Source of the DNA: Parcubacteria group bacterium Greene0714_7
GTDB lineage: Bacteria > Patescibacteriota > Minisyncoccia > Phycocordibacterales > Phycocordibacteraceae
NCBI GenBank assembly: GCA_007378985.1
Contig: VMHB01000002.1
Coordinates: 27,320 to 91,319 of the forward strand
DNA: 64,000 nt
Reading direction: 5' to 3'
How positions within the stretch are numbered: the first letter of the stretch is position 1; the number at the start of each line of letters is the position of its first letter. This document shows, piece by piece, positions 3,250 to 58,375 of the stretch. The position numbers and the translations under genes are program-made. The notes beneath the pieces were generated by a model. It searched no databases. It saw nothing but the letters and a program-made list of their open reading frames with translations, and was not told the origin of the DNA.

Positions 3250-3254
3250 AAAAA

Positions 3255-3902
3255 TTAATCAGTTAAGGTTCGCAAATCATCAGTCGCCACCGACGCATTC
3301 TCATCTTGTGCGCGGTGCGTGAACACAGTGATAAGAATAAAAAATGCCAAGAGGTCAAAAAACGATCCGATTTCAAAAAGAAATGGCATGCCGTGCGTGA
3401 GTGCGAGTCCGAATGTGAAGATGCCATTCTCCATAACAAAGAATCCAATTCCCTCCCCAAACATATCTTTTCGCGAAACCAACATAAGAAGGCCGACGAG
3501 CACAATGCCAAATGATGCAGCGAGCACAAAGTAATCAGCACCAACGGGCAATAACCCACGTGCTCCAACTAAAGCAACAATAGCCAGACACGCCGCAACA
3601 AAAGAAAGCGTTGCGGGACGTGCATATGATTGTAGGCGTTCAGATGCCCCACTCACACGTGCCGCACGAAGCAAAAACGAAGGAATAAACCAAACTTTAA
3701 TGAGAACAATAAGGCCTGCAACAATAAAAAGTTGAAACTCCCCCGTTACAAATGCTGCGGCAATAGCGAGGAGCGCAAGAAGCGCTGACTGTACTCGAAA
3801 TGCAGTTACCAAAGACCCCAAGCGCATGCGACTACTCATAAGAAACGCTAGGAAAAACATTCCTCCAGCAAACACTGTCATGGCAATTGCGATTGGTGTC
3901 AT
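3255..3902 (-). CDS. HyfE-like small membrane subunit of hydrogenase-4/Ehr-type complex
   Basis: A 215-aa all-helical membrane protein of the same size and position as hyfE within the operon. Confidence 0.6.
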   Translation of the reverse strand: MTPIAIAMTVFAGGMFFLAFLMSSRMRLGSLVTAFRVQSALLALLAIAAAFVTGEFQLFIVAGLIVLIKVWFIPSFLLRAARVSGASERLQSYARPATLSFVAACLAIVALVGARGLLPVGADYFVLAASFGIVLVGLLMLVSRKDMFGEGIGFFVMENGIFTFGLALTHGMPFLFEIGSFFDLLAFFILITVFTHRAQDENASVATDDLRTLTD

Positions 3903-3903
3903 A

Positions 3904-4884
3904 TTAGTGATAGAGGACGATTAACTCAACAGCAAGTCCGAGGAGCGCAATAAAGAATGCAAGCATCATATACTCCTGCATCCGATAAAAACGCATCTTC
4001 ACAATCACTGATTCTATAAAAGCAATTGCAAAAGCCCCGAGTGCAAGTTTTCCGAAAAATGCAATCAACGCAATCCCAAGCCCAAAGAACGTAACCGGTG
4101 GAGCGCTAATCCCAAATGGAATGAGAATGCCCATACACACTGCCAAGAGCGCAGTTAACTTTATTGCTGACGCATACTCGAGCATTGCAAGATATGTTCC
4201 TGAATACTCTAAGATCATAGCTTCGTGCACCATGGTGAGCTCGAGATGTGTCGCAGGATTATCTACTGGGTAGCGTGCATTTTCGGCAAGCAACACAAAT
4301 AAAAGTCCAATGAGTGTGACGATAGCAGGAGGAACAGCGACCAACCACGGCAGTGATGTGAAGTGTCCAACAATGCCCCCCATGCCCCATGCGCCCGTAG
4401 CAAGCGCAAGAGTTGCAAGTGATACATAGAGCGCTGGCTCAACGAGAGTGGCGAGCGTCATCTCACGGCTCGAACCCATGTTGCCAAACGTACTTCCCGT
4501 ATCCATGCCTCCAAGCACCAAAAATACTGAACCGAGCGCCACTACTGCGCCAAAAAGAAAAATATTATCGAGCGAGCTTGGCACAATTCCAAAGAAGAGC
4601 GAAGGTACAACAAGAGCAAGGAAGAATGCGCTTCCTAAGACCACAAATGGCACCATGCGAAATACCCACGAACTATGCTTTGTAATTGTCATCTCTTTTC
4701 GGAGGAGTGAAAGCATTGAGACGTAGGGCAAAAATATCGACGGTCCTTGGCGATTTTGAAAACGAGCTTTCAATGTGCGAACCATTCCCACGACTAATGG
4801 TGCAGAAAGAAGTACAACGAGAGCTTGAAATGTAATAAGGAGGTATGTCATAGAGTTGTAGCGAGAGTGAACACCAATGCGCAA
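3904..4884 (-). CDS. NuoH/HycD-like membrane subunit
   Basis: A 326-aa polytopic membrane protein sitting between the NuoL-like and HyfE-like genes, in NuoH/formate hydrogenlyase subunit 4 family order. Confidence 0.7.
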   Translation of the reverse strand: MRIGVHSRYNSMTYLLITFQALVVLLSAPLVVGMVRTLKARFQNRQGPSIFLPYVSMLSLLRKEMTITKHSSWVFRMVPFVVLGSAFFLALVVPSLFFGIVPSSLDNIFLFGAVVALGSVFLVLGGMDTGSTFGNMGSSREMTLATLVEPALYVSLATLALATGAWGMGGIVGHFTSLPWLVAVPPAIVTLIGLLFVLLAENARYPVDNPATHLELTMVHEAMILEYSGTYLAMLEYASAIKLTALLAVCMGILIPFGISAPPVTFFGLGIALIAFFGKLALGAFAIAFIESVIVKMRFYRMQEYMMLAFFIALLGLAVELIVLYH

Positions 4885-6854
4885 ATAACTAGGAGGAGGT
4901 ACAACTGAATGACGCCATTCTGGAGTCTTTTAACCGCACGGGAAACAGCAAAGACCGCAATGCCAATCGGGCGATAGAGCCAGTATTCAAAAAATGACTT
5001 AATACTCCACACAAGACGCCGACGCACAATCCACGGATTACTCATTGAAATAGGCTCAATAATTAGTTCCTTCTCCGACATGAGAATTGATTTGAAGAAA
5101 AATCTAATCGGCGCAGAAAAACCAGTTGCAGTATATTGCATTCGAGGAGTTATAGGTTGGCCGCAATCCCATGTATCCGTGATACGGGCAGGGTTTCTGT
5201 TAGAAAAAGATCGGCGACACACTGTGAGAAGCACTCCAATAAAAATAACACTTAGAAGTACCCACCATGCATTCATAGAAACTCCACCTAGAATTGCAAC
5301 GTCTCCAAAAAGTGTCACACCTTCCATGAAAGTGTTTGGCGCACTAAGAATTGGAAACAAAAATAATCCCGCAATGATTGAGAGGAGTACGGAAAATAGT
5401 GATGGAAGCCAAAGCAGTATCGGCATTGGGGACACCTGTTCTGCATGAGTCGTGCGTGCTCGTCCAAGAAAGATTGCACTAAACATACGCACGTACGCAA
5501 AGAGCGCGAGCCCGCCGACCAACGCAAGAAGAGCGAGTATCAATGCAAAACTTCCTCCAAAAAAAGCAGAAACCGTCATACCACTTGCGAGTGTCTGAAA
5601 ATATGTCCACTCACCAAAAAAGGTACCGAATGGGGGCAACGCAGCAGCTGCAAGAGAAAGCGCAAGAAATATTCCTGCAAAAATTGGCCAGCGCTGTGCA
5701 AGACCCCCTAGCTCGTCGAGATTTCGTGTATGTGTTTTTGATGCCACAGCACCAACTGCCATGAAAAGCCCTGTCTTGAAAATAAAATGGTTCGCAGTAT
5801 GAAGAATTATGAAAAGAGCAATGGATGGTGCAATTGCGGAAACCGCACTATCTTGAGATCCGTGCACAAGGAGGTATATTCCAACAGCAGAAAAGATGAG
5901 CCCCATATTTTCTATACTGCTCCACGCAAGGACGCGCTTTGCGTCATTCTCAACTGCAGCGCGGAGCGCACCAAAAAATGCTGAGAGAAGGCCAATACTA
6001 ATAACGAGGAATGCTGAAAAAGACGGAACAAACGGGAATAGTGCTACTCCTTGAATGAAACCAAAGAGTGCCACTTTAAGCATGACACCAGAGAGAAGCG
6101 CGGAGCTTCCACTTGGTGCTTGTGGGTGTGCATAGGGCAACCACTGATGAAGTGGCACTAAACCTGCTTTCGAACCAAACCCCGCTAAGAGAAGTACAAA
6201 TGCAATAGAGATAGCGAGTGGTGTGGCACCAAGAGCAGAGAGTGCAACATCATGCCACGACGCAAAAAGATTACCCCCTGCAAGAAGAAGAAGCCCTGCT
6301 GCAATACAAGCAAACCCAATGTGAGTCATCACAAAGTAGAGCCATCCTGCACGGAGTGATTCATCACTCCTATCTGCGATAACCAAGAAATATGCGGAGA
6401 CTGACATAATTTCCCAAGCCATCAGGAAAGTAAAAAGCGATGGGGAAAGGATCGTTGCTTGCATCCCTACAATAAAAAATGCCGAGGCAACATTGAGCGT
6501 TGGCAACACGTACACATCCTTATATGGTGGCAAGCTCTGAATCGCATAGAGCGAGGTTAGAAGGACGCCTCCGTACACCAACATAAGGAAAAACACTTGC
6601 ATCGAGTTAAGTGCAATGTTCACCAACCCAAAGAACGTACCATTGAAAGACGCACTATTTCCTATTCCTAAAAGAGCAAAAAAATAACTGCCAGCAATCA
6701 GGCCAGCAAAACCCGACAAAATAAACATCGATTGCACCAGCGTGTTGTTCCAAGAAAAACGGCGAGTCGCAAGAGAAAGAACTACACCTACAAGTGGGAG
6801 CACGAATGCTATAGCAAAAAGACAGTCGATAGTGAAGGAGGACATATGGTGCAT
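4848..6854 (-). CDS. NuoL/HyfB-like antiporter-type membrane subunit
   Basis: A 668-aa polytopic protein carrying the WLPYAHPQAPSGSSALLSGVMLKVALFG motif. Confidence 0.8.
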   Translation of the reverse strand: MHHMSSFTIDCLFAIAFVLPLVGVVLSLATRRFSWNNTLVQSMFILSGFAGLIAGSYFFALLGIGNSASFNGTFFGLVNIALNSMQVFFLMLVYGGVLLTSLYAIQSLPPYKDVYVLPTLNVASAFFIVGMQATILSPSLFTFLMAWEIMSVSAYFLVIADRSDESLRAGWLYFVMTHIGFACIAAGLLLLAGGNLFASWHDVALSALGATPLAISIAFVLLLAGFGSKAGLVPLHQWLPYAHPQAPSGSSALLSGVMLKVALFGFIQGVALFPFVPSFSAFLVISIGLLSAFFGALRAAVENDAKRVLAWSSIENMGLIFSAVGIYLLVHGSQDSAVSAIAPSIALFIILHTANHFIFKTGLFMAVGAVASKTHTRNLDELGGLAQRWPIFAGIFLALSLAAAALPPFGTFFGEWTYFQTLASGMTVSAFFGGSFALILALLALVGGLALFAYVRMFSAIFLGRARTTHAEQVSPMPILLWLPSLFSVLLSIIAGLFLFPILSAPNTFMEGVTLFGDVAILGGVSMNAWWVLLSVIFIGVLLTVCRRSFSNRNPARITDTWDCGQPITPRMQYTATGFSAPIRFFFKSILMSEKELIIEPISMSNPWIVRRRLVWSIKSFFEYWLYRPIGIAVFAVSRAVKRLQNGVIQLYLLLVICALVFTLATTL

Positions 6855-12300: not shown

Positions 12301-15186
12301 CTACTGCTTCTGGTTTTCTCGCATCTGATTATACTTTTGGTGAATATCAGCCTCCACAGCTTCGCGGGCTCGACCGTAGCGTTGATACGAAATCTGTTTC
12401 AATGCATCAATGTTCAAGAAGTCACCAGGGATAAATGGAATAGTCTCAATAGTAAAACCGGGGGTAGGTTTTCCTCCAGCAAGGAGCTTCAAATACGAGT
12501 GGAAGTTGTCAATTTTCAGGAAGTCGGAAACCTCAAAGCCTGGAAATTGTTTCGCAATATACTCAGCATCATCGGGACCTACACGAAACACTGCCATGGT
12601 ACCAACGTTACCGAATACTGAGTCTTTAATTTTTGGAAGGAGCTGAGAAACATACTGGTGTGCCATCGTCATAGAGAGGCGAAATTTGCGTGCCTCAGAG
12701 AGAATTGTGGAAATAGTATCGGTCGTAATGTTTTGGAACTCGTCAATGTAGAGATAGAAGTTCGGAGGATTCAAATGCAAATACTCCGTACGCGCAAGTG
12801 CGGTCATCATTATTTTCCCAACAATCACAAGACCAATCAAGTTTGCATTTACATCCCCTAGTCGGCCTTTGGACAAGTTCACAAGAAGAATTTTCTTGTT
12901 GTCCATAATGTCCTTGAAATTAAAGGCCGAGCGTTGCTGACCTATGATGGGGCGCATAATTTCGTTTGCGATGAAGATGTCGAACTTTGAGGTGATATAT
13001 GGAACCACGTTGCGCAAATCTCCTTCTCCGCGCACATTTTCTGCAATATCTTCCCAGAAGTGCGTTACCACAGGATTCTTACAGCGAGACAATTTCAATG
13101 CGCGGAATTCATCGTCAGCCAAAACACGGGAAATATCCATCAAGGTCGAGCCAGTATCAGGATCTTCGAGCACAAGCATTGTGGCATTACGGAAGTACTG
13201 CTCAAAGATAGGACCAAATGCTTCTGGTACATCGCCATATAATTTCTTGAAAATCTTAAACATTTCATCCACCACGAATGTTTTTTGTTCAGGGAAGCGT
13301 GGATCATACTCAAGCATATTGAGCCCCATTGGCCTTGCGGTGTATGCAGGATCAAAGTAAATGAGGTCATCGATACGATCTTTAGGAATACGGGAAAGAA
13401 TCTCCAATACATCCACGCCGTGTGGGTCAATAAAACACACCCCTTCCCCATTCTCAATGTCCTGAATAATCATGTTCTTCAGGAAGTTCGTCTTACCAGT
13501 ACCCGTTTGCCCAATGGTATACATGTGACGCAGGCGATCATCTGGAGTGAAATGAATTGGCGTTGCAATATTTGAGTAACGATTAATGCCAATGACAATG
13601 CCTTTCTCAGGAAGCCCTGGTGGCGCAGGAGCGAGCTTAGCGCTTGCAGTTTTGGCTTCACGAGATGCTGTACCTCCTGCAATAGTGAGATGAAAAATAG
13701 TTGAGAGCTCTGCCAAATTCATAGGCATGAGTGGAATCTTATGCATCAAAGGCGTTGGAGCAGCCTTGCGTGTCCATTCAAGCCACAGCTGATAGAAAAA
13801 TCCTTCGTGTGCTTGACGGTCAAACATGCGGAAGATGAACAAGCGGAGAAATTCCCGCAATTCCTTTCTACCTTTTATATGCTTAAAACGAAGGCGATTC
13901 GCTTTTGCATCTTCATACTGCCCAAAAGTATTTTCGAGTTCTGTAAGAATGGCCATTGCCCTCTCTTTGGTGCGAGCAGACGCAACAATACGTAAATTCA
14001 CTCCCACAATGACACTCTTGAGCTTTTTTGACACTGCGTCAGCCGCAAAAGAATCAATATTCTTACTATCATCCTTCTTTTTTTCTTCAGAGCTTTCCAA
14101 AAAACTAGTGAAGCCTTTGTTCAATCCCTGAAAAAATCGACGCATTGGTGAGTAATGCTCCATATACATATTTTTTCGAAATATGTCATTCGCAGAACCC
14201 TTACCTTTATTAAGTTCGTCTAAAACATAGCGAATACGCTTAGAGTGATAGTCTCCTGCTGGTGCAACGGTAATTTGAAGCGCGGCCCCCTCACCTTCTT
14301 TGGTAATTTTTGAAAGTGCTGCGAGCGTCACATTCATAGGGTCGTGACTAAACTCTTCTGATGTCTTTAAAGGAATTGGTGGCGGGCGCTGATAGTAAGC
14401 AGACGCTGCAACAGTCACACCAAATTGGTTAAAAAGATTGTAGTCATCTTTTTTTTCAACAATACGTGCACGGGGAAACATAGCAAAAATCTGCTTTTCA
14501 AACGTTTCCCGTTTTGCTCGAGGAACTGACAAATAAAAGACCGCTTCCTCTTTAGTGTGCGAGACAGCAATTTCCATTGTGAAATGCTGGAGATGAATTT
14601 TTTTGCGCTTGTGCCAATCTTTCAGGAAAATTGTATCGGGGAGAGCAACAAAAGGAATCATGCTCAAATAAAACTGCTCCATCTGCATGCAAACATCCTT
14701 AAGAGACCCCCCTGGTTTCCCTGGCGCGGCTTCAGGTACGGCTATATCCAAGAGAACAAAATCAAGAGCTACAGCGAGTGGGTCACTAGCGCTCAGCCCT
14801 GGGATTGGATGACCAGCTGTCCGGTACTGCACAAGCAGGCGATGGAAATCATCTTCAAGATGGGGATTATCAATGCGATCGAGCTCCTTCATGACAGCCT
14901 TGAATCCTTGGGTATGTAAAATACCCAACAACTCCTCCATGTCTTTGTCGTTCGAGTCAGGTGTAAGTTCAAGAATGATGCCTTGCTTCTGCTCTTGCTC
15001 TACCCCCTCTGGTGCCTCCGAAAGTGTAGGGAGAACAGATGCTTCGACAGGTAAGGCCGGATCTCCTCGATGCCCCCTTCCTCCACCACCAGAGCGCGCA
15101 GTCTCACGCAACTTCGTCAGTTGATGTTCGGGCGAGAGCTTCGCTGCTTTTGTATCAATTCCTTTGTTTGGATTAAACCCTGGCAT
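12301..15186 (-). CDS. Large P-loop ATPase of the VirD4/VirB4 (T4SS/FtsK-HerA superfamily) type with about 500-aa N-terminal extension
   Basis: Walker A GQTGTGKTNF, then FIDPHGVD (the DPKG-like motif of T4SS ATPases) and Walker B LYIDEFQN. No transmembrane segment is obvious. Confidence 0.5.
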   Translation of the reverse strand: MPGFNPNKGIDTKAAKLSPEHQLTKLRETARSGGGGRGHRGDPALPVEASVLPTLSEAPEGVEQEQKQGIILELTPDSNDKDMEELLGILHTQGFKAVMKELDRIDNPHLEDDFHRLLVQYRTAGHPIPGLSASDPLAVALDFVLLDIAVPEAAPGKPGGSLKDVCMQMEQFYLSMIPFVALPDTIFLKDWHKRKKIHLQHFTMEIAVSHTKEEAVFYLSVPRAKRETFEKQIFAMFPRARIVEKKDDYNLFNQFGVTVAASAYYQRPPPIPLKTSEEFSHDPMNVTLAALSKITKEGEGAALQITVAPAGDYHSKRIRYVLDELNKGKGSANDIFRKNMYMEHYSPMRRFFQGLNKGFTSFLESSEEKKKDDSKNIDSFAADAVSKKLKSVIVGVNLRIVASARTKERAMAILTELENTFGQYEDAKANRLRFKHIKGRKELREFLRLFIFRMFDRQAHEGFFYQLWLEWTRKAAPTPLMHKIPLMPMNLAELSTIFHLTIAGGTASREAKTASAKLAPAPPGLPEKGIVIGINRYSNIATPIHFTPDDRLRHMYTIGQTGTGKTNFLKNMIIQDIENGEGVCFIDPHGVDVLEILSRIPKDRIDDLIYFDPAYTARPMGLNMLEYDPRFPEQKTFVVDEMFKIFKKLYGDVPEAFGPIFEQYFRNATMLVLEDPDTGSTLMDISRVLADDEFRALKLSRCKNPVVTHFWEDIAENVRGEGDLRNVVPYITSKFDIFIANEIMRPIIGQQRSAFNFKDIMDNKKILLVNLSKGRLGDVNANLIGLVIVGKIMMTALARTEYLHLNPPNFYLYIDEFQNITTDTISTILSEARKFRLSMTMAHQYVSQLLPKIKDSVFGNVGTMAVFRVGPDDAEYIAKQFPGFEVSDFLKIDNFHSYLKLLAGGKPTPGFTIETIPFIPGDFLNIDALKQISYQRYGRAREAVEADIHQKYNQMRENQKQ

Positions 15187-26296: not shown

Positions 26297-26367
26297 GTGC
26301 GCACTAAGAAAAATGCGCCCTTACGAGCTTTGGGCATACTATCCCAATCACCCACCCACTGTCAATC

Positions 26368-27169
26368 TCATTTGTGCAACCTCCGGAGGTTGCACAAATG
26401 AGACACTAAAGCCAAAATGAAAAAATTACAAAATAATACCTTGGAGCTCTTCGACTAAAAGTTTTTTGCTGGTTGTTTTAACAAAATCGGCGTAATTACT
26501 TTTTGCTGTTATAGCAAACTGCCCCGTGATGATCTCGGGCACAATGAGTCCTCCCCATCGGTTCGCATCAGTAAAATCTTGGAGTGACGACCAAGGATAC
26601 TCGGATTCCCTTCCTGACCATTCTCGTATGTCACTGGGGTTTCTATGAATATAGGCGGATGCATATAAAAGCTGGGAATCTGTTTTTACATGCACCGCTT
26701 TGTACGGACCCTGAAATACATGTCCTGAGGTTTCATACTTAGTATTATAATATTTTGTATATCCGTCAGCTACGCGTTGCATGTAGCGTGCCATTCCTCC
26801 TTCAATGGTTTCTTTGACCAACAAGTGAAAGTGGTTCGACATAAGACAAAAGCACACCACTTCCACAAAACGACCCTCAATGATGGCCTCGATATCTTCG
26901 TTAGGGACAGAAAAACCAATATCCGGAACAAAACTTTCTGTAATCCGATGTATGTTTTTAAATTGATGAGGGGATTGGAGGAATAACACATTAAAAAGGA
27001 ATCGACGCCAGTCCCCTTTTTCTTTAAAAATAGTCTGCCTGTGCGCACCGCGATTGAACACATGGTAGTACTCCCCCGGAGCGATTCCTTCTCGTGACTT
27101 TAGCAATACCTTAGCCATCAACTCAGGCTACCACACCTCTGTGCAACCTCCAGAGGTTGCACAGAGAGG
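26368..27169. mobile_element. IS200/IS605-family (RAYT-like) element: Y1 transposase flanked by matching subterminal hairpin palindromes
   Basis: Left palindrome tcatttgtgcaacctccggaggttgcacaaatga (26368..26401) and right palindrome cctctgtgcaacctccagaggttgcacagagagg (27136..27169) share the core TGTGCAACCTCC/GGAGGTTGCACA. They bracket a HUH/Y1 transposase gene. Confidence 0.75.
26426..27121 (-). CDS. HUH Y1 (IS200-like / REP-associated tyrosine) transposase
   Basis: YYHVFNRGAHRQTIF, HUH motif CLMSNHFHLLVK, and Tyr-containing YKAVHV...YIHRNPS. Longer (231 aa) than classic IS200 TnpA. Confidence 0.75.
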   Translation of the reverse strand: MMAKVLLKSREGIAPGEYYHVFNRGAHRQTIFKEKGDWRRFLFNVLFLQSPHQFKNIHRITESFVPDIGFSVPNEDIEAIIEGRFVEVVCFCLMSNHFHLLVKETIEGGMARYMQRVADGYTKYYNTKYETSGHVFQGPYKAVHVKTDSQLLYASAYIHRNPSDIREWSGRESEYPWSSLQDFTDANRWGGLIVPEIITGQFAITAKSNYADFVKTTSKKLLVEELQGIIL

Positions 27170-27197: not shown

Positions 27198-30100
27198 CTA
27201 AAATTCATCGAAGCGCGGAGTAACACCTATGGTCACTGACTTTGAACTCGGCACCCCACCGGTTAAACAATTCATTGTGTATGTACTTTGTTGATTTATG
27301 ATCACAGATTGTGCACCTGAAAAAGCGGTTGAAGAAAGTCCCGGACCTGATATTGAACATGAGTCAGGAGTGCCTACCACTCCCCATGACACCGTTGCAG
27401 GGTCACCTTGGCGAACAGTAACGGCTGGGCTAATGTTGAGAGTAATATCGGCAGGGTTTACAGTCACTGTGGCGCTTGAAGATGCACTTCGTGTACCACT
27501 AGTACAAGTGATACCGTAGGTTGTAGTAACTGGAGGGGAAACAGTAACCGAGCCCACAGTTGCACTACCTGTTGGGAAATTAGTTCCCGTACAGGAAGTG
27601 GCGTACGAAGATGTCCAGTCAATTCTAGGAGAAGTCACACCTTTAATGATCGTATTTGGTGTGGCAGTAATCAGCACTGTTGGCGTGTTCTGTATGGTGC
27701 CAGCCCCACAGGTTGCAGTAACCGCACCTGTACCTGATGTCACAATAACTGAAGCCGATTTCGTACCGGCGGTACCGTATGTTTTTGAAACAGTTGCACC
27801 GGTGCCGGTCAGCCCGTCAGTGCCACTCCACACATAGGTATACGAGCCTACACCACCAGAAGGTGTAACGGTCCATATTAATGAGTCTCCAACATACCCC
27901 GTGCTTGGTGACGGAGAGCACGAGGCTGTGAGCGTGCCTGGGTTCACGGTGAGCGGTGTCCATGCACTGCAGTTATCAAGTTCGTTGGATTCATTCACTT
28001 CATTGAGCGGAGTGTCGGCACAAAAACGCATCTGGTACGCACCCGGCGAAAGAAATGTATAGCTTCCTGTTTCTGTACCACTTCCACCGGCTGAAATCGA
28101 TATTCGACTCAAAGCAATTTTTATTGATGTATTAGCTTCAGCAAAGTGAATAAAGAGACTGAAGATGCGGCCCCAGATAGAATCTAATTGAGTGAGATAA
28201 TTATTAAGACAGGCGCTGTCCGAAGCGAGGCACACATACATTCTTGAACCAAATACTGGAGTCGCTACTCCACCAGTATTATTAACACCAGCAGTAAATG
28301 TGCTGTTTACTCCTGCCGTCACACTAAGCGGTGTCAGGCTACCGGTGGTTAGATCAGACAAAGAAACACCAACCACCACAGAATTGGAGCAACTCGCTGT
28401 TATTGATGCCGGTGCCGATGCCGTTGCAAGACCTCCAAAATAATTATGTCTCGTTGTGTTACCGCTAGTGGAGGTTTTCGAGGCAAGAGAAGCATTTGAA
28501 TATGCTTCGTAGTGATAGTAGGTATTAACTGGCTGTCCAACCGAATTCAAAGTCTCTCGTACATCAACACTACAGCAACCGCCCGCAGGTGTTATTTCCG
28601 AACACACTCCTGCCATGGCAGAGTTAGCGCCACCCGTAAAGCCCACACCATCCTCTGTGCTGCCATAACTACCTACTTTTGTACCTCCAGAGCAGTGCTT
28701 TTCTCCTTGGAGCGTAACAGAAGTTACACCGGACGGACTAGTAACAGTAACTGAAGCTGTTTTTGTGCCAACTGTTGTATATATTTTTGAGATCGACGCA
28801 ACAGTACCAGAGAGACTATCAGTACCACTCCATGAATACGTGTACGAACCAGCTCCCCCTGATGCAGATGCAGTCCAAGTCACAGGACTACCGGTATATA
28901 CGCTCGTTGGAGATACTGAACATGACCCCGAAAGAACGCCGGAGGAGGTTGAATTTACTTGAACATTTGCGGTAGCAAAAGCGGTCTGGGGAGTCACGGC
29001 AGGGGAAGCGCCGACACATGAATAGATATCAGTATTGATGTTGCATGCACTGATGGTGTTCACCTTACATGTTGGGATGCTACAAGCCTTTCCTGTTGGA
29101 TTCGGAGGGCAAGTAGGTACGCTTGAATATGCCTTGTTTGGATCTGTGAGTGGGCAAGCAAAATCGCTTATATCAGACTCTGAGTATTGCCATATACCTG
29201 ACGATACTGCGCTAGCTCCTGTACAAGTAATAGAATAGTTTGTGGTGGCACTTAACGCCCCGGTAGAAATAGAGCCTGATGTATTCCCGCCAGTTTCAAA
29301 TCCACTACCAACACAAGAAACTGCATTAGTTGAGGACCATGTGAGAGTAGCTGAAGATCCAGAATTCAAACTTGTTGGAGTTGCAGATAACGAAACAGTC
29401 GGTGTGGGGATTGAGCTTACCGTGACTGTTTGAGATGCCGACGCAGACCCACCAGCGCCAGTACATGACACAAGATAGCTGGTTGTTTGTGATGGAGTAA
29501 CTGATACAGAGCCTGCGTTTGCTGACGCTGTAGAAAAATTAATGCCTGTGCATGATGTTGCATTCGTTGAACCCCATGTGAGCGTTGACGATGAACCTAC
29601 TACAAGTGAAGTTGGGTTTGCAGAAAGTGTTGCAGTTGGTGCAATAATTGGAGCGCTGACGGTCACCGTTGCTGAAGAAGAAACTGTTTGAATACCATCA
29701 GTGCAGGTAATCGAGTATGTTATTGAGGAAGCAGGTGAAACAATAAGCGAACCTGCAGTAGCGCCTCCAGTTGAAAAATTAGTACCCGTACATGAGGTCA
29801 CATAGTCCGAAGTCCATGTTAGAAGAGATGAACCACCACTGCTTATAGAAGACGGTGTTGCAATAATTCCTACATATAGAGTTGTAGGTTCCTCGATACA
29901 ACCATTCCCTTCATCAATGCGCGCGACTTGATACGAACTTTGCACCACATAACTATCTCCTCCATACACCGCACGAAACGCCGCTTCACCTGCACTACCA
30001 GGAGGGAAAGGGTTAGTCACTATTGTGTAGTCATACTCCCATGTCGTACCACTACACCCCCCAACCTCGCCACCTCCTCCTCCATCAAGGTTCGGGCCAG

Positions 30101-30212
30101 CATGTGTTAACTGAGGAACGGCACTAAACAGAACAATTGAAAAAAAAGCACCCATAAAAAAGATTTTAAAAGCGGGGAAAGCAAACCGGCGGAAGGCTAT
30201 CATTGAACCCAT
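27198..30212 (-). CDS. Giant secreted Cys/Ser/Thr-rich multi-repeat surface protein (paralog A), Ig-like two-Cys repeats + PKD-like modules, C-terminal ...TPRFDEF
   Basis: Signal peptide. About four 85-aa repeats of the form TLTWxSTNATSCTGxxFSTGG...VSVxPxxTTxYxxxCTGxGG...TVTV. Two YTY(S/V)WSGTD(S/G)L(S/T)G PKD-like motifs and Cys-rich linkers. Paralogous to the adjacent gene. Confidence 0.8.
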   Translation of the reverse strand: MGSMIAFRRFAFPAFKIFFMGAFFSIVLFSAVPQLTHAGPNLDGGGGGEVGGCSGTTWEYDYTIVTNPFPPGSAGEAAFRAVYGGDSYVVQSSYQVARIDEGNGCIEEPTTLYVGIIATPSSISSGGSSLLTWTSDYVTSCTGTNFSTGGATAGSLIVSPASSITYSITCTDGIQTVSSSATVTVSAPIIAPTATLSANPTSLVVGSSSTLTWGSTNATSCTGINFSTASANAGSVSVTPSQTTSYLVSCTGAGGSASASQTVTVSSIPTPTVSLSATPTSLNSGSSATLTWSSTNAVSCVGSGFETGGNTSGSISTGALSATTNYSITCTGASAVSSGIWQYSESDISDFACPLTDPNKAYSSVPTCPPNPTGKACSIPTCKVNTISACNINTDIYSCVGASPAVTPQTAFATANVQVNSTSSGVLSGSCSVSPTSVYTGSPVTWTASASGGAGSYTYSWSGTDSLSGTVASISKIYTTVGTKTASVTVTSPSGVTSVTLQGEKHCSGGTKVGSYGSTEDGVGFTGGANSAMAGVCSEITPAGGCCSVDVRETLNSVGQPVNTYYHYEAYSNASLASKTSTSGNTTRHNYFGGLATASAPASITASCSNSVVVGVSLSDLTTGSLTPLSVTAGVNSTFTAGVNNTGGVATPVFGSRMYVCLASDSACLNNYLTQLDSIWGRIFSLFIHFAEANTSIKIALSRISISAGGSGTETGSYTFLSPGAYQMRFCADTPLNEVNESNELDNCSAWTPLTVNPGTLTASCSPSPSTGYVGDSLIWTVTPSGGVGSYTYVWSGTDGLTGTGATVSKTYGTAGTKSASVIVTSGTGAVTATCGAGTIQNTPTVLITATPNTIIKGVTSPRIDWTSSYATSCTGTNFPTGSATVGSVTVSPPVTTTYGITCTSGTRSASSSATVTVNPADITLNISPAVTVRQGDPATVSWGVVGTPDSCSISGPGLSSTAFSGAQSVIINQQSTYTMNCLTGGVPSSKSVTIGVTPRFDEF

Positions 30213-30254
30213 TGTACAGGGAATTTACACCGATTGTTAAAAGAAGTGTGGGAA

Positions 30255-33020
30255 CTAAAACTCTTCGTACGCTGGAAGCAGTTTAACTGTTATTGATTTT
30301 GAGGTGACTCCTCCGCCTGTGGTGCATGAGAGCGTATAGGTGCTTTCTTGACCAATGACCACAGACTGTGAACCTGAAAAAGCGCTTGATGAAAGTCCCG
30401 GACCACTTATGAGGCACGTATCAGGACTTCCTGATACTGACCAACTAATGGTTACTGAATCATTACGACGAACTGATGTGTTTGGGGATGCAGTAAGCAC
30501 TAGATCGGCCACATAGACCGTAACAACCGCGCTCGAATAAACACTCTTTGATCCATTCGTACAAGTAAGATCGTATGTAGTGGTGTTAGTTGGTGTTACT
30601 GATACAGCACCAGATGTTTGACCTCCTGTTGCAAAGCTAGTGCTCGTACACGATGTTGCGTTTGTCGAAGACCATGTAAGTTGCGACGCGTTTTGCCCGC
30701 GAATAATTGAGCTCGGGGTCGCGCTTAAAAGTGCCGTAGGAGAAGCTGAAATTGAGGTTGAATTGCTACACGCCTGAGTGACAGACTGTGTACCTGAAGT
30801 AATACTTACAGAGCCTACTTTGGTTCCCACTGTTGTGTATTGCCGTACAACCGACTGCGTTGTTCCTGACAGACCGTCTGTACCACTCCACGAATACACA
30901 TATGAACCAGTGCCCCCCGCAGGAGACGCCGTCCACGTTATGTTGTCGTTGGTGTATCCAGAAGTAGGTGTGACTGCACAAGAAGTGCTAAGTGGTGAAC
31001 TTGAAACAATCACCGCAGTCCACGCACCACAATTATTTGTTTCATTGGACTCGTTGATAACACCGGAACCCGCAGATGAATTTTTGTCGGCGCACGCTCG
31101 CAGGTACCACGTGCCTGCAGAAGGGAACGCGTACGAAAGCGTAGTTACATCAGATCCGTTCGCTGAAATGTTTGGTGACGTGTCGGTACCAATATCTACC
31201 GTGTTCGCACCGCTTGAAGATGTGGCTCGCTGAAAAAGATTAGTGAACCCGCTACCTGTCGCAGGGTTACCGACGTTCGTGATTGTTGCAGAAAATGTTT
31301 TTGTGACATTAGTAACTGCGGATGTCGGTGAAATAGCGCCCGCAGTAAGATCTGACAAAACGACACTCACTGCAACTGAATTTGAACAACTTGCCGTTGT
31401 TGACATGGCGTTTGTTTTGAAACCTGCGGAATAATAGTAATTGTTCGTGTTACCTCCTGAAACAGTAGAATACGAATCCTTGGTTACAAGAGATGCGCCG
31501 GAGTAGGATGTCCATTGATAATACGTGTTGACCGGTTGTCCGCCCGAACTCAACACTTCTTTTGCGGACACACTGCAACACCCTCCAGCTGGAGTGATAC
31601 TGTCACACATTGCACTGTCACCGCTTGAATTATATACAGCACCATCTTCGGTAGTACTTTGACTTGCAACCAACGTGCCACCGGAACATTGCCTGTTGCC
31701 TTGGAGATTGGTTGTGCTCGTGTTGGTCACAGTAACCGAACCAGTTTTCGTACCAGTTATTGAGTATGTTTTTGAAATTAACGCACTAATTCCCGACAAT
31801 CCGTCCGTACCACTCCACGAATACGAGTAGACAGGTACACCGCCAGACGCAGATGCATTCCAAGTAACCGTCTCTCCCGTATACACGCTTGTGGGAGACG
31901 CCGTACACGATGCCTCAAGAGGAGCATTTGAAACGGTAACGTATGCGCTGCCTGATACACTTGGCGGAGGCGACGTTACTTGGCACGAATAGAGCTCTGT
32001 AGTAATACCACATCCAGGACCTATCGTATTTACCTTGCAAGTTGAAGGTGGCGATGTACATGATTTACCTTGAGGACTTGCTGGGCAATCTGGTACAGCG
32101 CTATACACATTGTTGTTGGACGATACAGGACACGATAGATCCGAGTAATCACTTTGATAGTATTGCCATGTGCCCGTACCACCACCCGAAGAACCGGTGC
32201 ATGTAACCGTGTAGTTTGTACTAGCGTTTGGTGTGATGGTTACCGAGCCCGATGTGGTACCGGCGGTGTCAAATTGAGTGCTCGAACAATATGAAGCGTT
32301 GCTTGAAGTCCACGAAAGGGTTGTGCTTCCGCCGACAGCAACGGTAGAGGGTGACGCGGTCAACGATATACTTGGCGACGAACTTGGGGGCGTTACCGTA
32401 AGAGTTGCCGAAGCAGTTGCCGTACCTCCCGCACCAGTACAACTTACTGAATAGTTGCTGGTTTGCGGTGGTGAGACGGACACTGTACCAGAGAGTGCCC
32501 CGCCCGTACTGAACCCCGTTCCCGTACATGATGTTGCATTTGTGGAACTCCACGTGAGTGCAGATGAGTACCCTGCCGTTATAGAAGTCGGTGACACAGA
32601 AAGTGTGGCAACCGGTGTAGGAGAAACATTTGTGTAAGTGAGGGTGTATTTTTTGCTCGCACTCGAAATACCTGTGCCACTGTACAGTCCATAAGAAACT
32701 CCCCACGCAGACGGAGTGGATACCAGCGATGCCTGAATACAGTAGGTATTCGGAGTATTGTAATTACTTGGCAAGAAAGAGCCAGTAATAAATCCCCATG
32801 CGAGCACCGACCACGACGGCGCTGGTCCATCGCTACTATCTCCGCCAAGTTCTGAAATAAATGCCCCTGTACATTGTCTATTTGCAGTGGTGACTGCACC
32901 ACTGCTCGTTGGTGGATTGGGATACGAGTATGCATGTGCCAATCCCGACACCCCAAAAACACCTACAACAAAACTTGCAAAAATTACAGTTTTTATTAGT
33001 GAGGTAACCGATGGGCACAT
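30255..33020 (-). CDS. Giant secreted Cys/Ser/Thr-rich multi-repeat surface protein (paralog B), C-terminal ...LPAYEEF
   Basis: Same domain order as paralog A. The start is placed at the internal Met giving the signal peptide MCPSVTSLIKTVIFASFVVGVFGVSGLAHA; the ORF track extends to 33080. Confidence 0.75.
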   Translation of the reverse strand: MCPSVTSLIKTVIFASFVVGVFGVSGLAHAYSYPNPPTSSGAVTTANRQCTGAFISELGGDSSDGPAPSWSVLAWGFITGSFLPSNYNTPNTYCIQASLVSTPSAWGVSYGLYSGTGISSASKKYTLTYTNVSPTPVATLSVSPTSITAGYSSALTWSSTNATSCTGTGFSTGGALSGTVSVSPPQTSNYSVSCTGAGGTATASATLTVTPPSSSPSISLTASPSTVAVGGSTTLSWTSSNASYCSSTQFDTAGTTSGSVTITPNASTNYTVTCTGSSGGGTGTWQYYQSDYSDLSCPVSSNNNVYSAVPDCPASPQGKSCTSPPSTCKVNTIGPGCGITTELYSCQVTSPPPSVSGSAYVTVSNAPLEASCTASPTSVYTGETVTWNASASGGVPVYSYSWSGTDGLSGISALISKTYSITGTKTGSVTVTNTSTTNLQGNRQCSGGTLVASQSTTEDGAVYNSSGDSAMCDSITPAGGCCSVSAKEVLSSGGQPVNTYYQWTSYSGASLVTKDSYSTVSGGNTNNYYYSAGFKTNAMSTTASCSNSVAVSVVLSDLTAGAISPTSAVTNVTKTFSATITNVGNPATGSGFTNLFQRATSSSGANTVDIGTDTSPNISANGSDVTTLSYAFPSAGTWYLRACADKNSSAGSGVINESNETNNCGAWTAVIVSSSPLSTSCAVTPTSGYTNDNITWTASPAGGTGSYVYSWSGTDGLSGTTQSVVRQYTTVGTKVGSVSITSGTQSVTQACSNSTSISASPTALLSATPSSIIRGQNASQLTWSSTNATSCTSTSFATGGQTSGAVSVTPTNTTTYDLTCTNGSKSVYSSAVVTVYVADLVLTASPNTSVRRNDSVTISWSVSGSPDTCLISGPGLSSSAFSGSQSVVIGQESTYTLSCTTGGGVTSKSITVKLLPAYEEF

Positions 33021-33027
33021 AGAAATT

Positions 33028-33687
33028 TTATTGTGGGGTAACGACATACGGCGCTGATGACACAAATGTAATGGCGCCATCTATCGAATACAAATTAAAA
33101 TTATTTGGACGACCAGTGTGGATTGCAAACATAGTTGGTGACACAAACCCGATACCACTAACATACGTAGGGAGGGCAGGAATTTTCAACGAACCAAAGT
33201 ATGATACGCTCGCGCCACCCTCATACACCTTGAACACATCAAATTGGTTGGTGATCTGATTAAACAATACCGCAGCACTTCCATCAGGAGCAACCGCACC
33301 AATATCAGGAGTAATACCTTCTTGTGCAATGAGGACAAGCTCATTTTTTGCTGTTGGATTGCGCCAAACTAGCCCTTTCTCGGTAACTACAAGAATCATA
33401 CCGCTCGGAAGTGTGACTTTATTTGAGACTGAGAGACTTTGTTGTGGTGCCGTGGCAGTACGCACTTCATTCGCAGGATTCAAGACATACCATTGATACG
33501 TATCAGTTTCATAGATTGAAAATACTTGATCTGCCATTCGCTCGTCCACCTCTTTTGATACCCATTCAGAAAAAAATGTACGCAAAATAGGAACTGCATA
33601 CAGAAGACCGCAGAGTGCACCTAAAATGAGTGCAATAGAAAGTGTGATACGCATTGGTCGAGAGAGTCTCTGTAATATCTGACTCAT
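33028..33687 (-). CDS. Hypothetical membrane-anchored (N-terminal TM) extracytoplasmic protein co-located with the giant protein pair
   Basis: 219 aa with TM helix ITLSIALILGALCGLLYAV then a soluble domain. No family recognised. Confidence 0.55.
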   Translation of the reverse strand: MSQILQRLSRPMRITLSIALILGALCGLLYAVPILRTFFSEWVSKEVDERMADQVFSIYETDTYQWYVLNPANEVRTATAPQQSLSVSNKVTLPSGMILVVTEKGLVWRNPTAKNELVLIAQEGITPDIGAVAPDGSAAVLFNQITNQFDVFKVYEGGASVSYFGSLKIPALPTYVSGIGFVSPTMFAIHTGRPNNFNLYSIDGAITFVSSAPYVVTPQ

Positions 33688-33762
33688 ACTCTAAATAGTC
33701 TACAATGAAAAATAGCACTCCTTACAAAAAACACCCCGCATGATGCGGGGTGTTGATGGATA

Positions 33763-46015: not shown

Positions 46016-46591
46016 ATGCACACTGCAAAAAAATTCAACTTTGGAAACTTAGACGGTATTTCGCCAAAACAGCTTGAAGTACACATCAAACTCTATGAGG
46101 GCTATGTAAAATTCTTAAACACACTTGAGGAAACTGCTGTAGACTTAAAAAAAGATTCTGAAAAAAACGCATACGCTCTCGCTGAAGTAACTCGACGCAT
46201 CGGATTTGAGTGGAACGGCATGCGAATGCACGAACACTACTTCTCACAGTGGGAGGGAACGCCCGCCCCTATCGAAGGCCCTCTGAAAGATGCGCTGGCG
46301 GCACAATATGGCTCATACGAATCTTGGGAGAACGAATTCAAAGCAGTTGGCATGATGCGTGGTATTGGATGGGCGATGCTTTCGTATGACGCAACAACCA
46401 AGAACTTTCTCACTCACTTTGTTGCTGACCACGAGCTAGGACAACTCAATGACACAAAGACAATCCTCGCTCTTGATATGTGGGAACACGCCTACATGGT
46501 GGATTACACTCCAGCCGAAAAAAAGACCTATATAGAGGCATTCTTTAAAAATTTGAATGGCGCTGTGGTTCAATCACGTTTCCCTTCCTGA
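46016..46591 (+). CDS. sodA: Fe/Mn superoxide dismutase
   Basis: DMWEHAYMVDY C-terminal signature and N-terminal metal-ligand His region. Confidence 0.8.
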   Translation: MHTAKKFNFGNLDGISPKQLEVHIKLYEGYVKFLNTLEETAVDLKKDSEKNAYALAEVTRRIGFEWNGMRMHEHYFSQWEGTPAPIEGPLKDALAAQYGSYESWENEFKAVGMMRGIGWAMLSYDATTKNFLTHFVADHELGQLNDTKTILALDMWEHAYMVDYTPAEKKTYIEAFFKNLNGAVVQSRFPS

Positions 46592-47954
46592 AACGGAAAA
46601 ACAACAAGCCTGCCACTCCATACGCAAACCCAAGCACCATCAAAAGTGGCCACATCCACTCTCGTGGAATAGGGAGAGAGGCAAACGGAAGTATCCCAAA
46701 AAATGTTGCGATAGAAATAATATAAGAAAGGATTCCGTACGCAAAGATGCTTAGTGGGAAAGCGAGTACCGGAGAGACAATTGAGGTAATCGACGCAAAG
46801 AAACCAACAAACATAGCGAGCGGAACTGCGGGTAAGACAAGTGCATTTGCTGGAAGAAATACGAGAGACACTGCGCCTACAGAAAATATAAGAAGTGGCA
46901 ATACCGTCACCTGCGTTGCAAGAGTAGTTGAAACAATTTCACGAAATGGGAAATATTTAAAATCAGGAATGAACTTCAAATGGTCTGCAATTTTTGCAGA
47001 AAATAATATAAGTCCGAGCGTTGCAAGAATAGAGAGTTGGAATGAGAGATCATACAAAACAATAAACGGATTCATGACTGCCATTGTGGCGGCAGCAATG
47101 GCGAGCATACGTAGTGCTGCCTTTGGCCGATGCAAAACAGTCGCAACCATCATGAGGAGTGCCATGATGAGTGCGCGAATAGTTGTCTCAGATCCGCCAG
47201 TCATCACTGCAAAGCCAATAACAAAAACCGCAGAGAAACTATATGCAACTTTGCGTGAAAATATTTTTAGAAAAACAAAAGAAATCCACTGAATCACGAG
47301 CGCAACGTTGTAGCCAGAGAGAACAATAATGTGCACGACTCCTGCATTTCGAAATGCTCCCGTTATCTTTTCACCCAACGATTGTTTTTCACCGAGAAGT
47401 AAACCCGCAAGAAGTGCGGATTGAGGTTCTGGAACTGCACGCTCAATTCCTTTAATAAATAAATGTTTAACAGATAGAAGTCCCGCAACAATTGGATGCC
47501 CCTCTCCTGTTGCCAGTTTCGTAACCTGCGGAAATGAAATGATGTAGAGAATGTTATGTGCACGAAGATACTTTGGATAATTAAATGTTCGCCCTGAGTC
47601 AGTTTCAAAAGGCTCAGGTTTTTTAAGTTTTCCTTTTACACTAATGCGATCACCATAGACGGCAGTCTCAAACGAATCCGCAAAGAGAAGTACTCGTACT
47701 TTCTCTTGAGCAGAAACACCATTCAACTTTTGCACTTTCACAACAAGGTGTGTGGTGCGTTCACGCTGGTCAGAGTCTCTCACTACAACGCCTTCAATGA
47801 CAACACTAGTATCAACTGAGTCTTCAAAAATCGAAGGAAGTTTTTCGGGTACCAATACTGAATACACTCCTGCACCAACTACGAGCCCGACACAAAGTAT
47901 CGGCACGACATTTCGAATAAAAAAACTCTTGAAAAACTCTGTATGATATATCAT
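46545..47954 (-). CDS. comEC: ComEC/Rec2 DNA-uptake channel (membrane domains only)
   Basis: DUF4131-like N-terminus plus polytopic competence domain (VVHIIVLSGYNVALV). No fused MBL domain. Confidence 0.8.
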   Translation of the reverse strand: MIYHTEFFKSFFIRNVVPILCVGLVVGAGVYSVLVPEKLPSIFEDSVDTSVVIEGVVVRDSDQRERTTHLVVKVQKLNGVSAQEKVRVLLFADSFETAVYGDRISVKGKLKKPEPFETDSGRTFNYPKYLRAHNILYIISFPQVTKLATGEGHPIVAGLLSVKHLFIKGIERAVPEPQSALLAGLLLGEKQSLGEKITGAFRNAGVVHIIVLSGYNVALVIQWISFVFLKIFSRKVAYSFSAVFVIGFAVMTGGSETTIRALIMALLMMVATVLHRPKAALRMLAIAAATMAVMNPFIVLYDLSFQLSILATLGLILFSAKIADHLKFIPDFKYFPFREIVSTTLATQVTVLPLLIFSVGAVSLVFLPANALVLPAVPLAMFVGFFASITSIVSPVLAFPLSIFAYGILSYIISIATFFGILPFASLPIPREWMWPLLMVLGFAYGVAGLLFFRFRKGNVIEPQRHSNF

Positions 47955-58313: not shown

Positions 58314-58339
58314 TCTTTTATAAGAATAACATCGCGGAG

Positions 58340-58375
58340 CAGGGTTGAGCATTTAGTGAATAGGGTTTAGTGGAG
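58340..58375. repeat. CCCTAA-like repeat copy (G-rich orientation gcagggttgagcatttagtgaatagggtttagtgg) upstream of pilB
   Basis: Motif family. Confidence 0.6.

Follow-up and report, generated by a model that had tools for sequence, protein, structure and literature searches.

A conserved C-terminal hexapeptide on giant secreted proteins of Patescibacteria and a linked membrane protein as its candidate receptor

The window considered here is a stretch of 64,000 nucleotides from Parcubacteria group bacterium Greene0714_7 (GenBank assembly GCA_007378985.1, contig VMHB01000002.1, positions 27,320 to 91,319 of the forward strand). Inside its S10 ribosomal-protein cluster lies a cassette that encodes a 219-aa membrane protein and two giant, putatively secreted proteins of 921 and 1004 aa (Table 1). 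Both giant open reading frames occur exactly where an earlier note on this DNA, made from the sequence and its translated reading frames, had placed them, and their description as tandem paralogs holds: in a pairwise BLASTP alignment the proteins are collinear, with 415 identities over 864 aa (48%; E = 0). The start of the 921-aa protein at 33020 agrees with the public annotation (P0001), and an alternative 941-aa reading from 33080 would run into the 219-aa gene.

Table 1. Features of the cassette and its flanks, in coordinates of the window.
Feature	Position	Strand	Basis
Promoter-like element TTGACA-N16/18-GATAGT/TAGTAT, just upstream of rpsS, after the cassette	26336..26365	-	
1004-aa downstream giant (Greene07147_345), paralog of the 921-aa protein	27198..30212	-	sequence, BLASTP, Pfam, public annotation, module HMM
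Tail P-R-F-D-E-F of the 1004-aa protein; stop codon 27198-27200 directly after	27201..27218	-	sequence, family-wide conservation
Penultimate and terminal Ig-like modules, 1004-aa protein, residues 843-998	27219..27686	-	module HMM
Three N-terminal Ig-like modules, 1004-aa protein, residues 113-337	29202..29876	-	module HMM
Putative Sec signal peptide, 1004-aa protein, residues 1-38, ...QLTHA/GPN	30099..30212	-	by eye from sequence
921-aa upstream giant (Greene07147_346)	30255..33020	-	sequence, BLASTP, Pfam, public annotation, module HMM
Tail P-A-Y-E-E-F of the 921-aa protein; stop codon 30255-30257 directly after	30258..30275	-	sequence, AF2, family-wide conservation
Penultimate and terminal Ig-like modules, 921-aa protein, residues 763-915	30276..30734	-	module HMM, AF2, Foldseek
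CARDB domain of the 921-aa protein	31029..31352	-	Pfam PF07705, 34.3 bits vs cut-off 22.7
Two N-terminal Ig-like modules, 921-aa protein, residues 138-211 and 215-279, a Cys pair in each	32184..32609	-	module HMM
Putative Sec signal peptide, 921-aa protein, residues 1-30, ...GLAHA/YSY	32931..33020	-	by eye from sequence
Partner gene, 219-aa protein: basic N-terminus, one membrane helix, all-beta ectodomain, probably a partial beta-propeller	33028..33687	-	
Predicted membrane helix of the partner, about residues 13-35, three Arg before it	33583..33651	-	sequence; AF2 helix spans 10-40
Terminator-like hairpin, 11-bp stem with 7 G-C pairs, then T-run, between rplB and the partner gene	33730..33754	-	

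Both giants are rich in Ser and Thr, carry few charged residues and are composed of multiple Ig-like modules, PKD and CARDB domains and Cys-rich linkers. The shared features that had been described earlier, namely a Cys-rich linker, the PKD-like motif YxYSWSGTD(G/S)LSG, a GGCCSV region and the two tails, all appear in the pairwise alignment. Profile searches of the kind proposed in the earlier note place CARDB (PF07705) above its cut-off of 22.7 bits in both proteins, at 31.6 and 34.3 bits, a 30-aa insertion in the 1004-aa protein restricting its match to the C-terminal half of the profile. PKD_4 (PF18911) exceeds its cut-off of 27 bits only in the 1004-aa protein (39.1 bits); the 921-aa protein reaches 19 bits, although it shares the YxYSWSGTDGLSG motif. 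At the N-terminus, each giant has one basic n-region and a hydrophobic core followed by THA/G or AHA/Y, as would be expected of an ordinary Sec signal peptide, and a role for the tail in secretion, one of those once suggested for it, is thus unlikely.

The repeated modules of the giants are likewise real, and their number differs from the three to four per protein first proposed. A hidden Markov model of the module, which within the window finds it in these two giants only, gives three N-terminal copies, one penultimate and one terminal copy in the 1004-aa protein, and two, one and one in the 921-aa protein. The terminal copy had been taken for a separate domain of about 90 aa; its conserved end is borne out, whereas the domain itself is homologous to the internal modules, of which it is a variant with six extra residues. 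Neither this homology nor the setting in the S10 cluster had been remarked upon in the earlier note. The terminal modules of the two paralogs are 57% identical. Internal copies fit the profile only to about position 78, and those matches extending to positions 83-84 lie nearly always at protein ends. An AF2 model of the last 178 aa of the 921-aa protein (pLDDT 91.4) contains two complete beta-sandwiches, which Foldseek matched to tandem Ig folds. In this model the terminal sandwich ends at residue 171 and the tail, residues 173-178, lies outside any strand, which suggests that the tail is an appendage and not a core strand.

The giants end in ...TPRFDEF (1004 aa) and ...LPAYEEF (921 aa), and no other ORF of the window ends in [DE]EF. 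Beyond the window, the tail has the consensus P-x-(F/Y)-x-E-(F/I/Q)-COOH, and its conservation was assessed with a module HMM stripped of the tail columns, by which 117 proteins with the last module near the C-terminus were compared with 139 controls in which all modules are internal. The distance from the last module core to the C-terminus peaks at exactly 8 residues (89/117). Glu stands at position -2 in 106 of the 117 proteins and in 7 of the 139 controls, and the pattern P-x-[FYW]-x-E-x$ occurs in 89 and 2, respectively. Among 92 distinct tails, F or Y occupies position -4 in 84 and F, I or Q position -1 in 87, L and V also being found at the last residue. This conservation is far beyond chance. 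Tail carriers comprise about 100 diverged proteins, from 86 to more than 1700 aa, with unrelated upstream architectures, and related genomes hold additional tail proteins at a second locus. All organism names attached to tail-bearing proteins are those of Patescibacteria lineages, almost all cluster entries carrying no taxon label. Searches of Pfam, NCBIfam and the literature yielded no record that describes the tail or the 219-aa partner, and nothing relevant to the tail in the literature.

The earlier note had also named the 219-aa protein as a candidate partner, and comparative genomics strongly supports this choice. The 921-aa gene begins 7 nt after the partner stop codon, and the same arrangement recurs elsewhere: 21 pairs of a partner gene followed by a tail gene were found, with a spacing of at most 11 nt or an 8-nt overlap, in a sample kept narrow by its source, since 18 of the loci came from a terminal-domain alignment scan with one peptide pattern. 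These pairs occupy two conserved neighborhoods, one between rplB and rpsS and the other between L25-SLT_2 and L31. In most loci examined, the tail gene directly follows the partner gene. When all ORFs of 24 sequences (23 loci and the window) were searched by jackhmmer with the partner, each of the 15 matches, the window's 219-aa protein included, had a tail gene as its immediate downstream neighbor. More pairs come from L025 (two) and from L026. In L015 and L025, two partner-plus-tail pairs lie in tandem. The linkage is reciprocal, for a search that began from the partner found a tail protein next in 4/4 complete loci; a metagenome scan with the long-partner alignment gave 2 loci. Genomes that have no partner at the rplB locus carry one at the L31 locus. 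Some tail genes stand without an adjoining partner, including the second giant of the window and of L007 and the lone giants of L002, L008 and L009, and in L021 and L022 tail genes are present with no partner detected at all.

The partner itself is a shortened member of an unannotated family of proteins of about 300-340 aa, which numbers at least 19, word-indexed homolog searches having given 5 and then 19 members. From the positive-inside rule, its N-terminus is expected to lie inside the cell and its ectodomain outside. This ectodomain is probably a beta-propeller, as suggested by weak matches to PD40, to an S9-peptidase propeller and to a Tol component, the sequence evidence being sub-threshold and the PD40 match occurring in 1 of 19 family members. 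With the partner profile, the sole distant match to bear an annotation was a "Tol biopolymer transport system component", in which PD40 repeats occur. Structure prediction had been proposed for both the terminal domain and its neighbor; the former was confident, whereas the model of the partner was poor (pLDDT 60.6), and its fold is used here as support only. A length of 219 aa would accommodate only about 3-4 blades.

The cassette is likely a separate transcription unit, as marked by the terminator-like hairpin after rplB, which is kept in 6 orthologous loci with compensatory changes in the stem. The promoter-like element before rpsS is kept in four loci (L001, L002, L007 and L008). Individual promoter sites were counted only where conserved across loci, the promoter scan overall being at chance (13 found vs 13.7 expected). 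Very high expression through co-transcription with the ribosomal genes was considered and dropped in view of these two signals, since a conserved terminator after rplB argues against simple co-transcription. No Rfam family was found within the window.

Adjacent to the cassette, at 26426-27121, lies a gene for a 231-aa protein that matches Pfam Y1_Tnp (33.3 bits vs a cut-off of 23) and falls below the cut-off for NCBIfam REP_Tyr_transpos (29 bits vs 80); a 36-nt palindrome adjoins it. Recent insertion of the cassette by this Y1 transposase-like gene was rejected as the principal explanation, since the same gene order is kept in genomes with giants that share only 50-60% identity. A literature search on insertions in ribosomal operons found nothing relevant.

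The best explanation for these observations, to which we would give slightly less than an even chance, is that the propeller protein captures the tail of a Sec-exported giant and thereby holds it non-covalently on the cell. The giants would leave the cell by the Sec pathway through their signal peptides and fold outside as chains of Ig-like, PKD and CARDB domains with disulfides, and each protein ends in the fixed six-residue extension, P-x-(F/Y)-x-E-(F/I/Q), of its last Ig-like module. The product of the upstream gene, with its single N-terminal membrane helix, would present a beta-propeller-type domain outward and could grip the free tail at the C-terminus, and perhaps the terminal module with it, as the giant exits the translocon. 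The giant would thus be retained at the surface by a bond that is not covalent, and in the window one partner would serve two tandem paralogs. Several considerations temper this proposal. The low-confidence model of the partner, the sub-threshold evidence for its propeller and its room for few blades weigh against it, the variable last residue is loose for the ligand of a carboxylate pocket, tail genes without an adjoining partner count against capture, and conserved synteny in compact genomes could reflect co-regulation or an assembly or chaperone role instead of anchoring.

A second way to account for the tail, plausible in itself and on balance unlikely, is that it caps the terminal Ig-like module structurally or makes a lattice contact for it, with the propeller protein as a helper in folding, assembly or export. 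The tail may shield an exposed edge strand, or it may allow self-assembly into a layer or fiber by strand augmentation. Given the homology of the terminal domain to the internal modules, the tail could be an adaptation of the fold to the terminal position, and the tail genes with no adjoining partner fit such a role as well; the composition of the giants, Ser/Thr-rich, charge-poor and multi-Ig, is that of many envelope or S-layer proteins, and an archaeal S-layer fragment, 1L0Q, in which a propeller is joined to PKD, is among the matches for both models. However, the predicted sandwich is complete without the tail, and a pure cap needs neither a near-invariant Glu at -2 nor a fixed end across varied architectures. 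The strict pairing with the partner, and the paired duplication of partner and tail genes, would also be left unexplained.

A third and distinctly less probable possibility is that the tail signals processing or ligation, whereby an enzyme, perhaps encoded elsewhere, trims the giant or links it to peptidoglycan or lipid while the propeller acts as a substrate-presenting adaptor. C-terminal motifs at a fixed position are characteristic of signals for sorting and processing. In addition, proteins of other bacteria (mostly unnamed) that carry the same module end in PEP-CTERM-like anchors, which makes the C-terminus a site where sorting information is swapped, and in the widespread L31 context a gene for an SLT_2 peptidoglycan lytic transglycosylase invariably precedes the pair. 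Against this, the rplB locus has no SLT_2 gene, and the loci examined show no gene for a sortase-like or other enzyme that is conserved alongside the pair. No transmembrane segment follows the motif; to our knowledge, all known sortase, exosortase, archaeosortase and rhombosortase signals require one. The NCBIfam sorting-signal models gave no match, and the earlier note's view that the tail resembles neither LPXTG nor PEP-CTERM signals stands. Nor could the domains of the giants be assigned to a family of adhesins whose sorting mechanism is known, an outcome that the earlier note had set as a refutation: NCBIfam returned nothing and Pfam only PKD and CARDB.

Finally, the idea that the tails are alike merely as a by-product of recent tandem duplication, also foreseen earlier, is refuted, for the two genes are indeed adjacent paralogs but are only 48% identical, their duplication is old because the tandem pair also occurs in L007 and single copies of either type elsewhere, and the tail is shared by some 100 diverged proteins and by the second locus. 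In all, the interpretation of the earlier note is partly supported.

The ways in which CPR/Patescibacteria build their surface and attach to hosts are poorly characterized; among attachment devices, only type IV pili are well supported. Microscopy has revealed S-layers in some CPR species (PMC13293708). No CPR S-layer protein was found to be identified in the literature searched. As a sequence tag, the tail singles out an entire class of surface proteins encoded by these genomes, and with a specific candidate receptor and two conserved loci it offers a testable handle. The findings point to an undescribed mechanism by which proteins are held at the cell surface. On the names available, tail and propeller receptor could well form a two-gene surface-display module confined to Patescibacteria (Parcubacteria/Paceibacteria), a view that we hold just short of even confidence. 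A bolder and more tentative reading is that the Paceibacteria/Parcubacteria use enzyme-free surface retention, based on the Ig-like tail domain of about 85 aa and a dedicated propeller receptor, for a cargo that, in these cells of ultra-small size, is the main envelope (S-layer-like) protein or a host-contact protein possibly engaged in adhesion. This would account for the location of the pair amid core translation genes at every locus examined. If the interaction of tail and propeller is true, it would represent a new form of protein display on a monoderm cell that dispenses with sortase and membrane anchor, and with the tag, sequence alone could suffice to predict the surface proteome of lineages not in culture.

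Several known systems resemble parts of this arrangement. LPXTG/sortase, PEP-CTERM/exosortase, PGF-CTERM/archaeosortase, GlyGly-CTERM/rhombosortase and MYXO-CTERM all place, like the tail, a short position-fixed C-terminal motif on varied Sec-exported proteins of a lineage. These tripartite signals consist of a motif, a transmembrane helix and a basic cluster and are cleaved by a membrane enzyme, whereas the giants stop at the motif: no hydrophobic segment follows ...EF as it would in a sortase substrate, neither helix nor Arg cluster is present as in PEP-CTERM proteins, and NCBIfam gave no match for either type. Moreover, the gene linked to the tail proteins encodes what appears to be a non-enzymatic, propeller-type membrane protein, unlike the processing enzyme of those systems. 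The T9SS CTD of Bacteroidota is, like the tail module, an Ig-like beta-sandwich of 80-100 aa at the extreme C-terminus of varied cargo, for which it acts as the common sorting module. T9SS is an outer-membrane machine of diderms, PorU cleaves its CTD, which lacks an invariant carboxylate motif at the terminus, and Pfam and NCBIfam profile searches found no such CTD in the giants. The same databases gave no SLH or S-layer family in the giants, which is compatible with an S-layer held by another anchor.

Free C-terminal motifs are read by the WD40 domains of alpha/beta'-COP (KKxx/KxKxx-COOH) and by the PDZ domain of DegS (YxF-COOH of outer-membrane proteins). Their likeness to the proposed capture is one of mechanism only, as they serve eukaryotic vesicle coats and the diderm envelope stress response and recognize other motifs. 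TolB/PD40 propellers are located in the envelope and bind a partner protein, much as the 219-aa family is proposed to do; the latter differs in having its own N-terminal membrane anchor, fewer blades and no Tol-Pal context. The Methanosarcina mazei surface protein 1L0Q, which appears in the match lists of both models through fold-level likeness only, unites a YVTN beta-propeller and PKD in one polypeptide, whereas here they belong to separate, co-encoded proteins. The SlaA/SlaB pair of the Sulfolobales is archaeal and has no sequence relationship to the giants or the partner; SlaB has its membrane anchor in a C-terminal helix and employs a coiled coil, with no conserved C-terminal hexapeptide. 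What it would share with the cassette is its overall design, a large beta-sandwich outer protein held non-covalently by a smaller membrane tether encoded by the adjacent gene, a tethering that is here proposed for the giants and their propeller-type partner.

The two large secreted proteins (the giants) are collinear, with 48% identity over 864 residues in a pairwise BLASTP alignment, and all of the architecture read from them in the earlier note was recovered there: repeated modules of ~75–85 aa with two Cys each, a Cys-rich W(Q/E)Y..SD.SD..CP linker, two YxYSWSGTD(G/S)LSG segments with a GGCCSV region in both proteins, and C-termini reading ...TPRFDEF and ...LPAYEEF, with the stop codon immediately after. 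The terminal domain that the note had also described is indeed present, though as the same Ig-like module plus six extra residues rather than as a domain type of its own. A module HMM found 3+1+1 copies in the 1004-aa giant and 2+1+1 in the 921-aa giant. Pfam matches were limited to CARDB, in both giants, and PKD_4, which passed the cut-off in only one of them; an NCBIfam profile search of the giants gave no match. Both are 31–35% Ser+Thr, with 27–30 Cys and scarce charged residues. The 921-aa giant can alternatively be read as 941 aa from an in-frame ATG at 33080 (-), which adds 20 residues and runs 53 nt into the 219-aa gene; the public annotation takes the start that gives 921 aa, and with it a normal signal peptide. 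Within the CARDB domain of the 1004-aa giant (residues ~655–690) lies a ~30-aa hydrophobic insertion (CLNNYLTQLDSIWGRIFSLFIHFAEANTS) that is missing from its paralogue and kept at 87–89%, gap-free, in orthologues P0009, P0011, P0014 and P0015.

The C-terminal hexapeptide, or tail, extends well beyond this pair. An ending of the form ...V(N/K)(V/I/L)xP-x-(F/Y)-x-E-(F/I/Q) closes most Patescibacteria-type proteins among the 120 best full-length homologues, and the tail-ending members of that set vary in length and upstream architecture. Searched exhaustively as a profile, the 84-aa terminal domain retrieved 1374 proteins at E≤1e-3; internal module copies stop matching at about position 78, and matches reaching positions 83–84 almost always fall at the last residue of the protein. 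In a motif-blind test, the tail columns were deleted, and a 78-position core HMM served to measure how far the last module lies from the C-terminus in 256 module-bearing proteins. One distance, exactly 8 residues, stands out as the only spike; it holds for 89 of the 117 proteins in which the last module lies near the end. Glu occupies position −2 in 106/117 of these proteins versus 7/139 with internal modules only, and P-x-[FYW]-x-E-x$ occurs in 89/117 versus 2/139. Across 92 distinct tails, 84 carry F/Y at −4, and the final residues include F (58), I (19) and Q (10). The organism names on tail-bearing proteins and loci are all Patescibacteria lineages, except for comparison locus L021, labelled just “bacterium”.

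The tail has also been joined to quite different N-terminal domains, as seen in a 474-aa protein of GWAWSxxxGWxSFN repeats ending in VNVIPNFQEF (locus L005, 13717–15141). Its gene lies within that genome's L31-type locus, as does that of a 195-aa protein (13101–13688) with the motif FTQP..PPGGNV..P(V/L)NVG, often found in hypothetical proteins of CPR. Other module-bearing proteins end in hydrophobic/Arg-rich PEP-CTERM-like anchors instead of the tail; many-module examples are P0132, P0133, P0153, P0161, P0171, P0174, P0200, P0214 and P0251. The module is widespread, and the C-terminal sorting element seems to have been swapped between lineages.

The 219-aa neighbour, or partner, has three Arg, followed by one hydrophobic helix and then ~170 beta-strand-rich residues. 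It weakly but significantly resembles a ~320-aa protein (E=9e-8) encoded just upstream of distant tail-bearing genes. A jackhmmer search of all ORFs in 24 sequences (23 loci and the window) gave 15 partner matches, each lying immediately upstream of an ORF that carries the tail. Further pairs occur at L025 and L026, with two tandem pairs each at L015 and L025; in L025, a short 231-aa partner matches a 315-aa one at E=1.5e-20. Since the tail had served to find all these loci, sampling was also begun from the partner side, and a tail-ending signal-peptide protein was encoded next in 4/4 loci with a complete downstream gene. In total, 21 partner–tail gene pairs were found, always separated by ≤11 nt or overlapping by 8 nt. 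Tail genes lacking an adjacent partner are the second tandem giants (window, L007) and the lone giants of L002/L010, L008 and L009; in the genomes of these lone giants the partner is found at the other locus. No partner-family member was detected in L021 or L022, from more distant genomes, where the gene preceding the tail gene encodes a protein of 453 aa in L021 (4963–6324; signal peptide, C-terminal membrane anchor) and one of 187 aa in L022 (6206–6769; hydrophobic segment at the N-terminus); these may be alternative partners.

The cassette lies within the S10 ribosomal-protein cluster, in the order rplW-rplB, partner, giant, giant, Y1 transposase-like gene, rpsS-rplV-rpsC-rplP. The same position is filled in orthologous genomes whose giants are just 52–58% identical; there the giants number one or two, and the partner and Y1 gene may be present or missing. 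A second, more widespread home runs L25, SLT_2 (a coiled-coil lytic transglycosylase), partner, tail protein, L31, RF1, S2, EF-Ts. Both homes are occupied in five genomes; the L31-type locus was not found within the window. The Y1 gene holds the same giant-to-rpsS position in at least six genomes and so appears fixed rather than mobile. Between it and rpsS lies a perfect REP-like palindrome, kept in L002, L007 and L008 and single-copy in the window, which would fit a domesticated REP-associated tyrosine transposase.

A strong hairpin with a T-run, terminator-like, directly follows the rplB stop codon; six other loci (L001, L002, L006, L007, L008, L009) retain it, with compensatory changes in the stem. 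In this clade the S10 cluster seems to be transcriptionally split after rplB. An element TTGACA-N17-TA(G/C)TAT lies upstream of rpsS in L001, L002, L007 and L008 as well as in the window. These two conserved signals give the cassette the look of a transcription unit of its own, insulated within the S10 cluster; co-transcription with the ribosomal genes at very high expression was dropped on the same grounds. An extended -10-like TGTA(C/G)A(C/A)TA(T/G) motif, conserved in the equivalent spacers of L001, L002 and L006–L009, may be the cassette's own promoter, very near the start codon. Elsewhere in the window, genes for DNA uptake and for type IV pili or secretion lie near the locus, and the first genes listed below look like a membrane-bound hydrogenase or complex-I-like module, unusual for a Parcubacterium.

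Features of the window, in window coordinates
Feature	Position	Strand	Remarks
Fused NuoC/NuoD-like (NiFe-hydrogenase-related) subunit, two Mrp/NuoL-like antiporter subunits	231-6854	-	
961-aa protein	12301-15186	-	weak TrwB/TraG coupling-protein matches
Palindrome CTCATTTGTGCAACCTCCGGAGGTTGCACAAATGAG	26367-26402		36 nt
Y1 transposase-like gene (RAYT-like, IS200-like), 231 aa	26426-27121	-	Pfam above cut-off, NCBIfam RAYT equivalog below
Giant, 1004 aa	27198-30212	-	ORF; identical to public “hypothetical protein” Greene07147_345
CARDB-domain insertion	about 28140-28250	-	
Giant, 921 aa	30255-33020	-	ORF; identical to public “hypothetical protein” Greene07147_346
Extension in 941-aa reading	33021-33080	-	
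Partner, 219 aa	33028-33687	-	ORF; stops 7 nt 5′ of 921-aa gene
Extended -10-like motif	33688-33729	-	between rplB terminator and first cassette gene
Hairpin with T-run	33754-33730	-	
ComEC competence channel	46545-47954	-	
PilB-type T2SSE ATPase	56577-58352	-	

The sole element that travels with the tail is the tightly coupled gene for a membrane-anchored protein, probably outward-facing and of propeller type. There is ample precedent for propellers and PDZ domains that recognise free C-terminal motifs. In the simplest model, which we hold tentatively at a little under an even chance, the propeller would hold the tail-bearing giant non-covalently on the cell: the hexapeptide would be the last portion to exit the translocon, the propeller would capture it, and the Ig-string would thereby be tethered. 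There is a substantial chance, though less than an even one, that this constitutes a distinct retention system, possibly with the envelope protein of these organisms as its cargo. Less probably, the tail could be a structural or lattice element with the partner as assembly factor. A processing or ligation signal is improbable; the tail cannot act as a sortase or exosortase signal, as no transmembrane segment follows it. Nor does the tail seem needed for export, the giants' signal peptides appearing ordinary, so that the secretion role which the earlier note considered is unlikely. That the tails are alike only through duplication is refuted by their occurrence in diverged homologues and by the contrast in Glu at −2.

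A literature search found no paper mentioning the tail, and the system lacks what defines each of the named sorting families tested, having no TM helix, linked enzyme or model match. As a “terminal Ig-like sorting domain”, the T9SS CTD comes closest, but it differs in being part of diderm outer-membrane secretion. Propeller capture of the tail would resemble C-terminal sorting signals in its logic, and the partner–giant pair resembles S-layer anchor pairs such as SlaA/SlaB in gene organisation. We rate the tail and its partner as belonging with surface-protein C-terminal tags that have a cognate partner.
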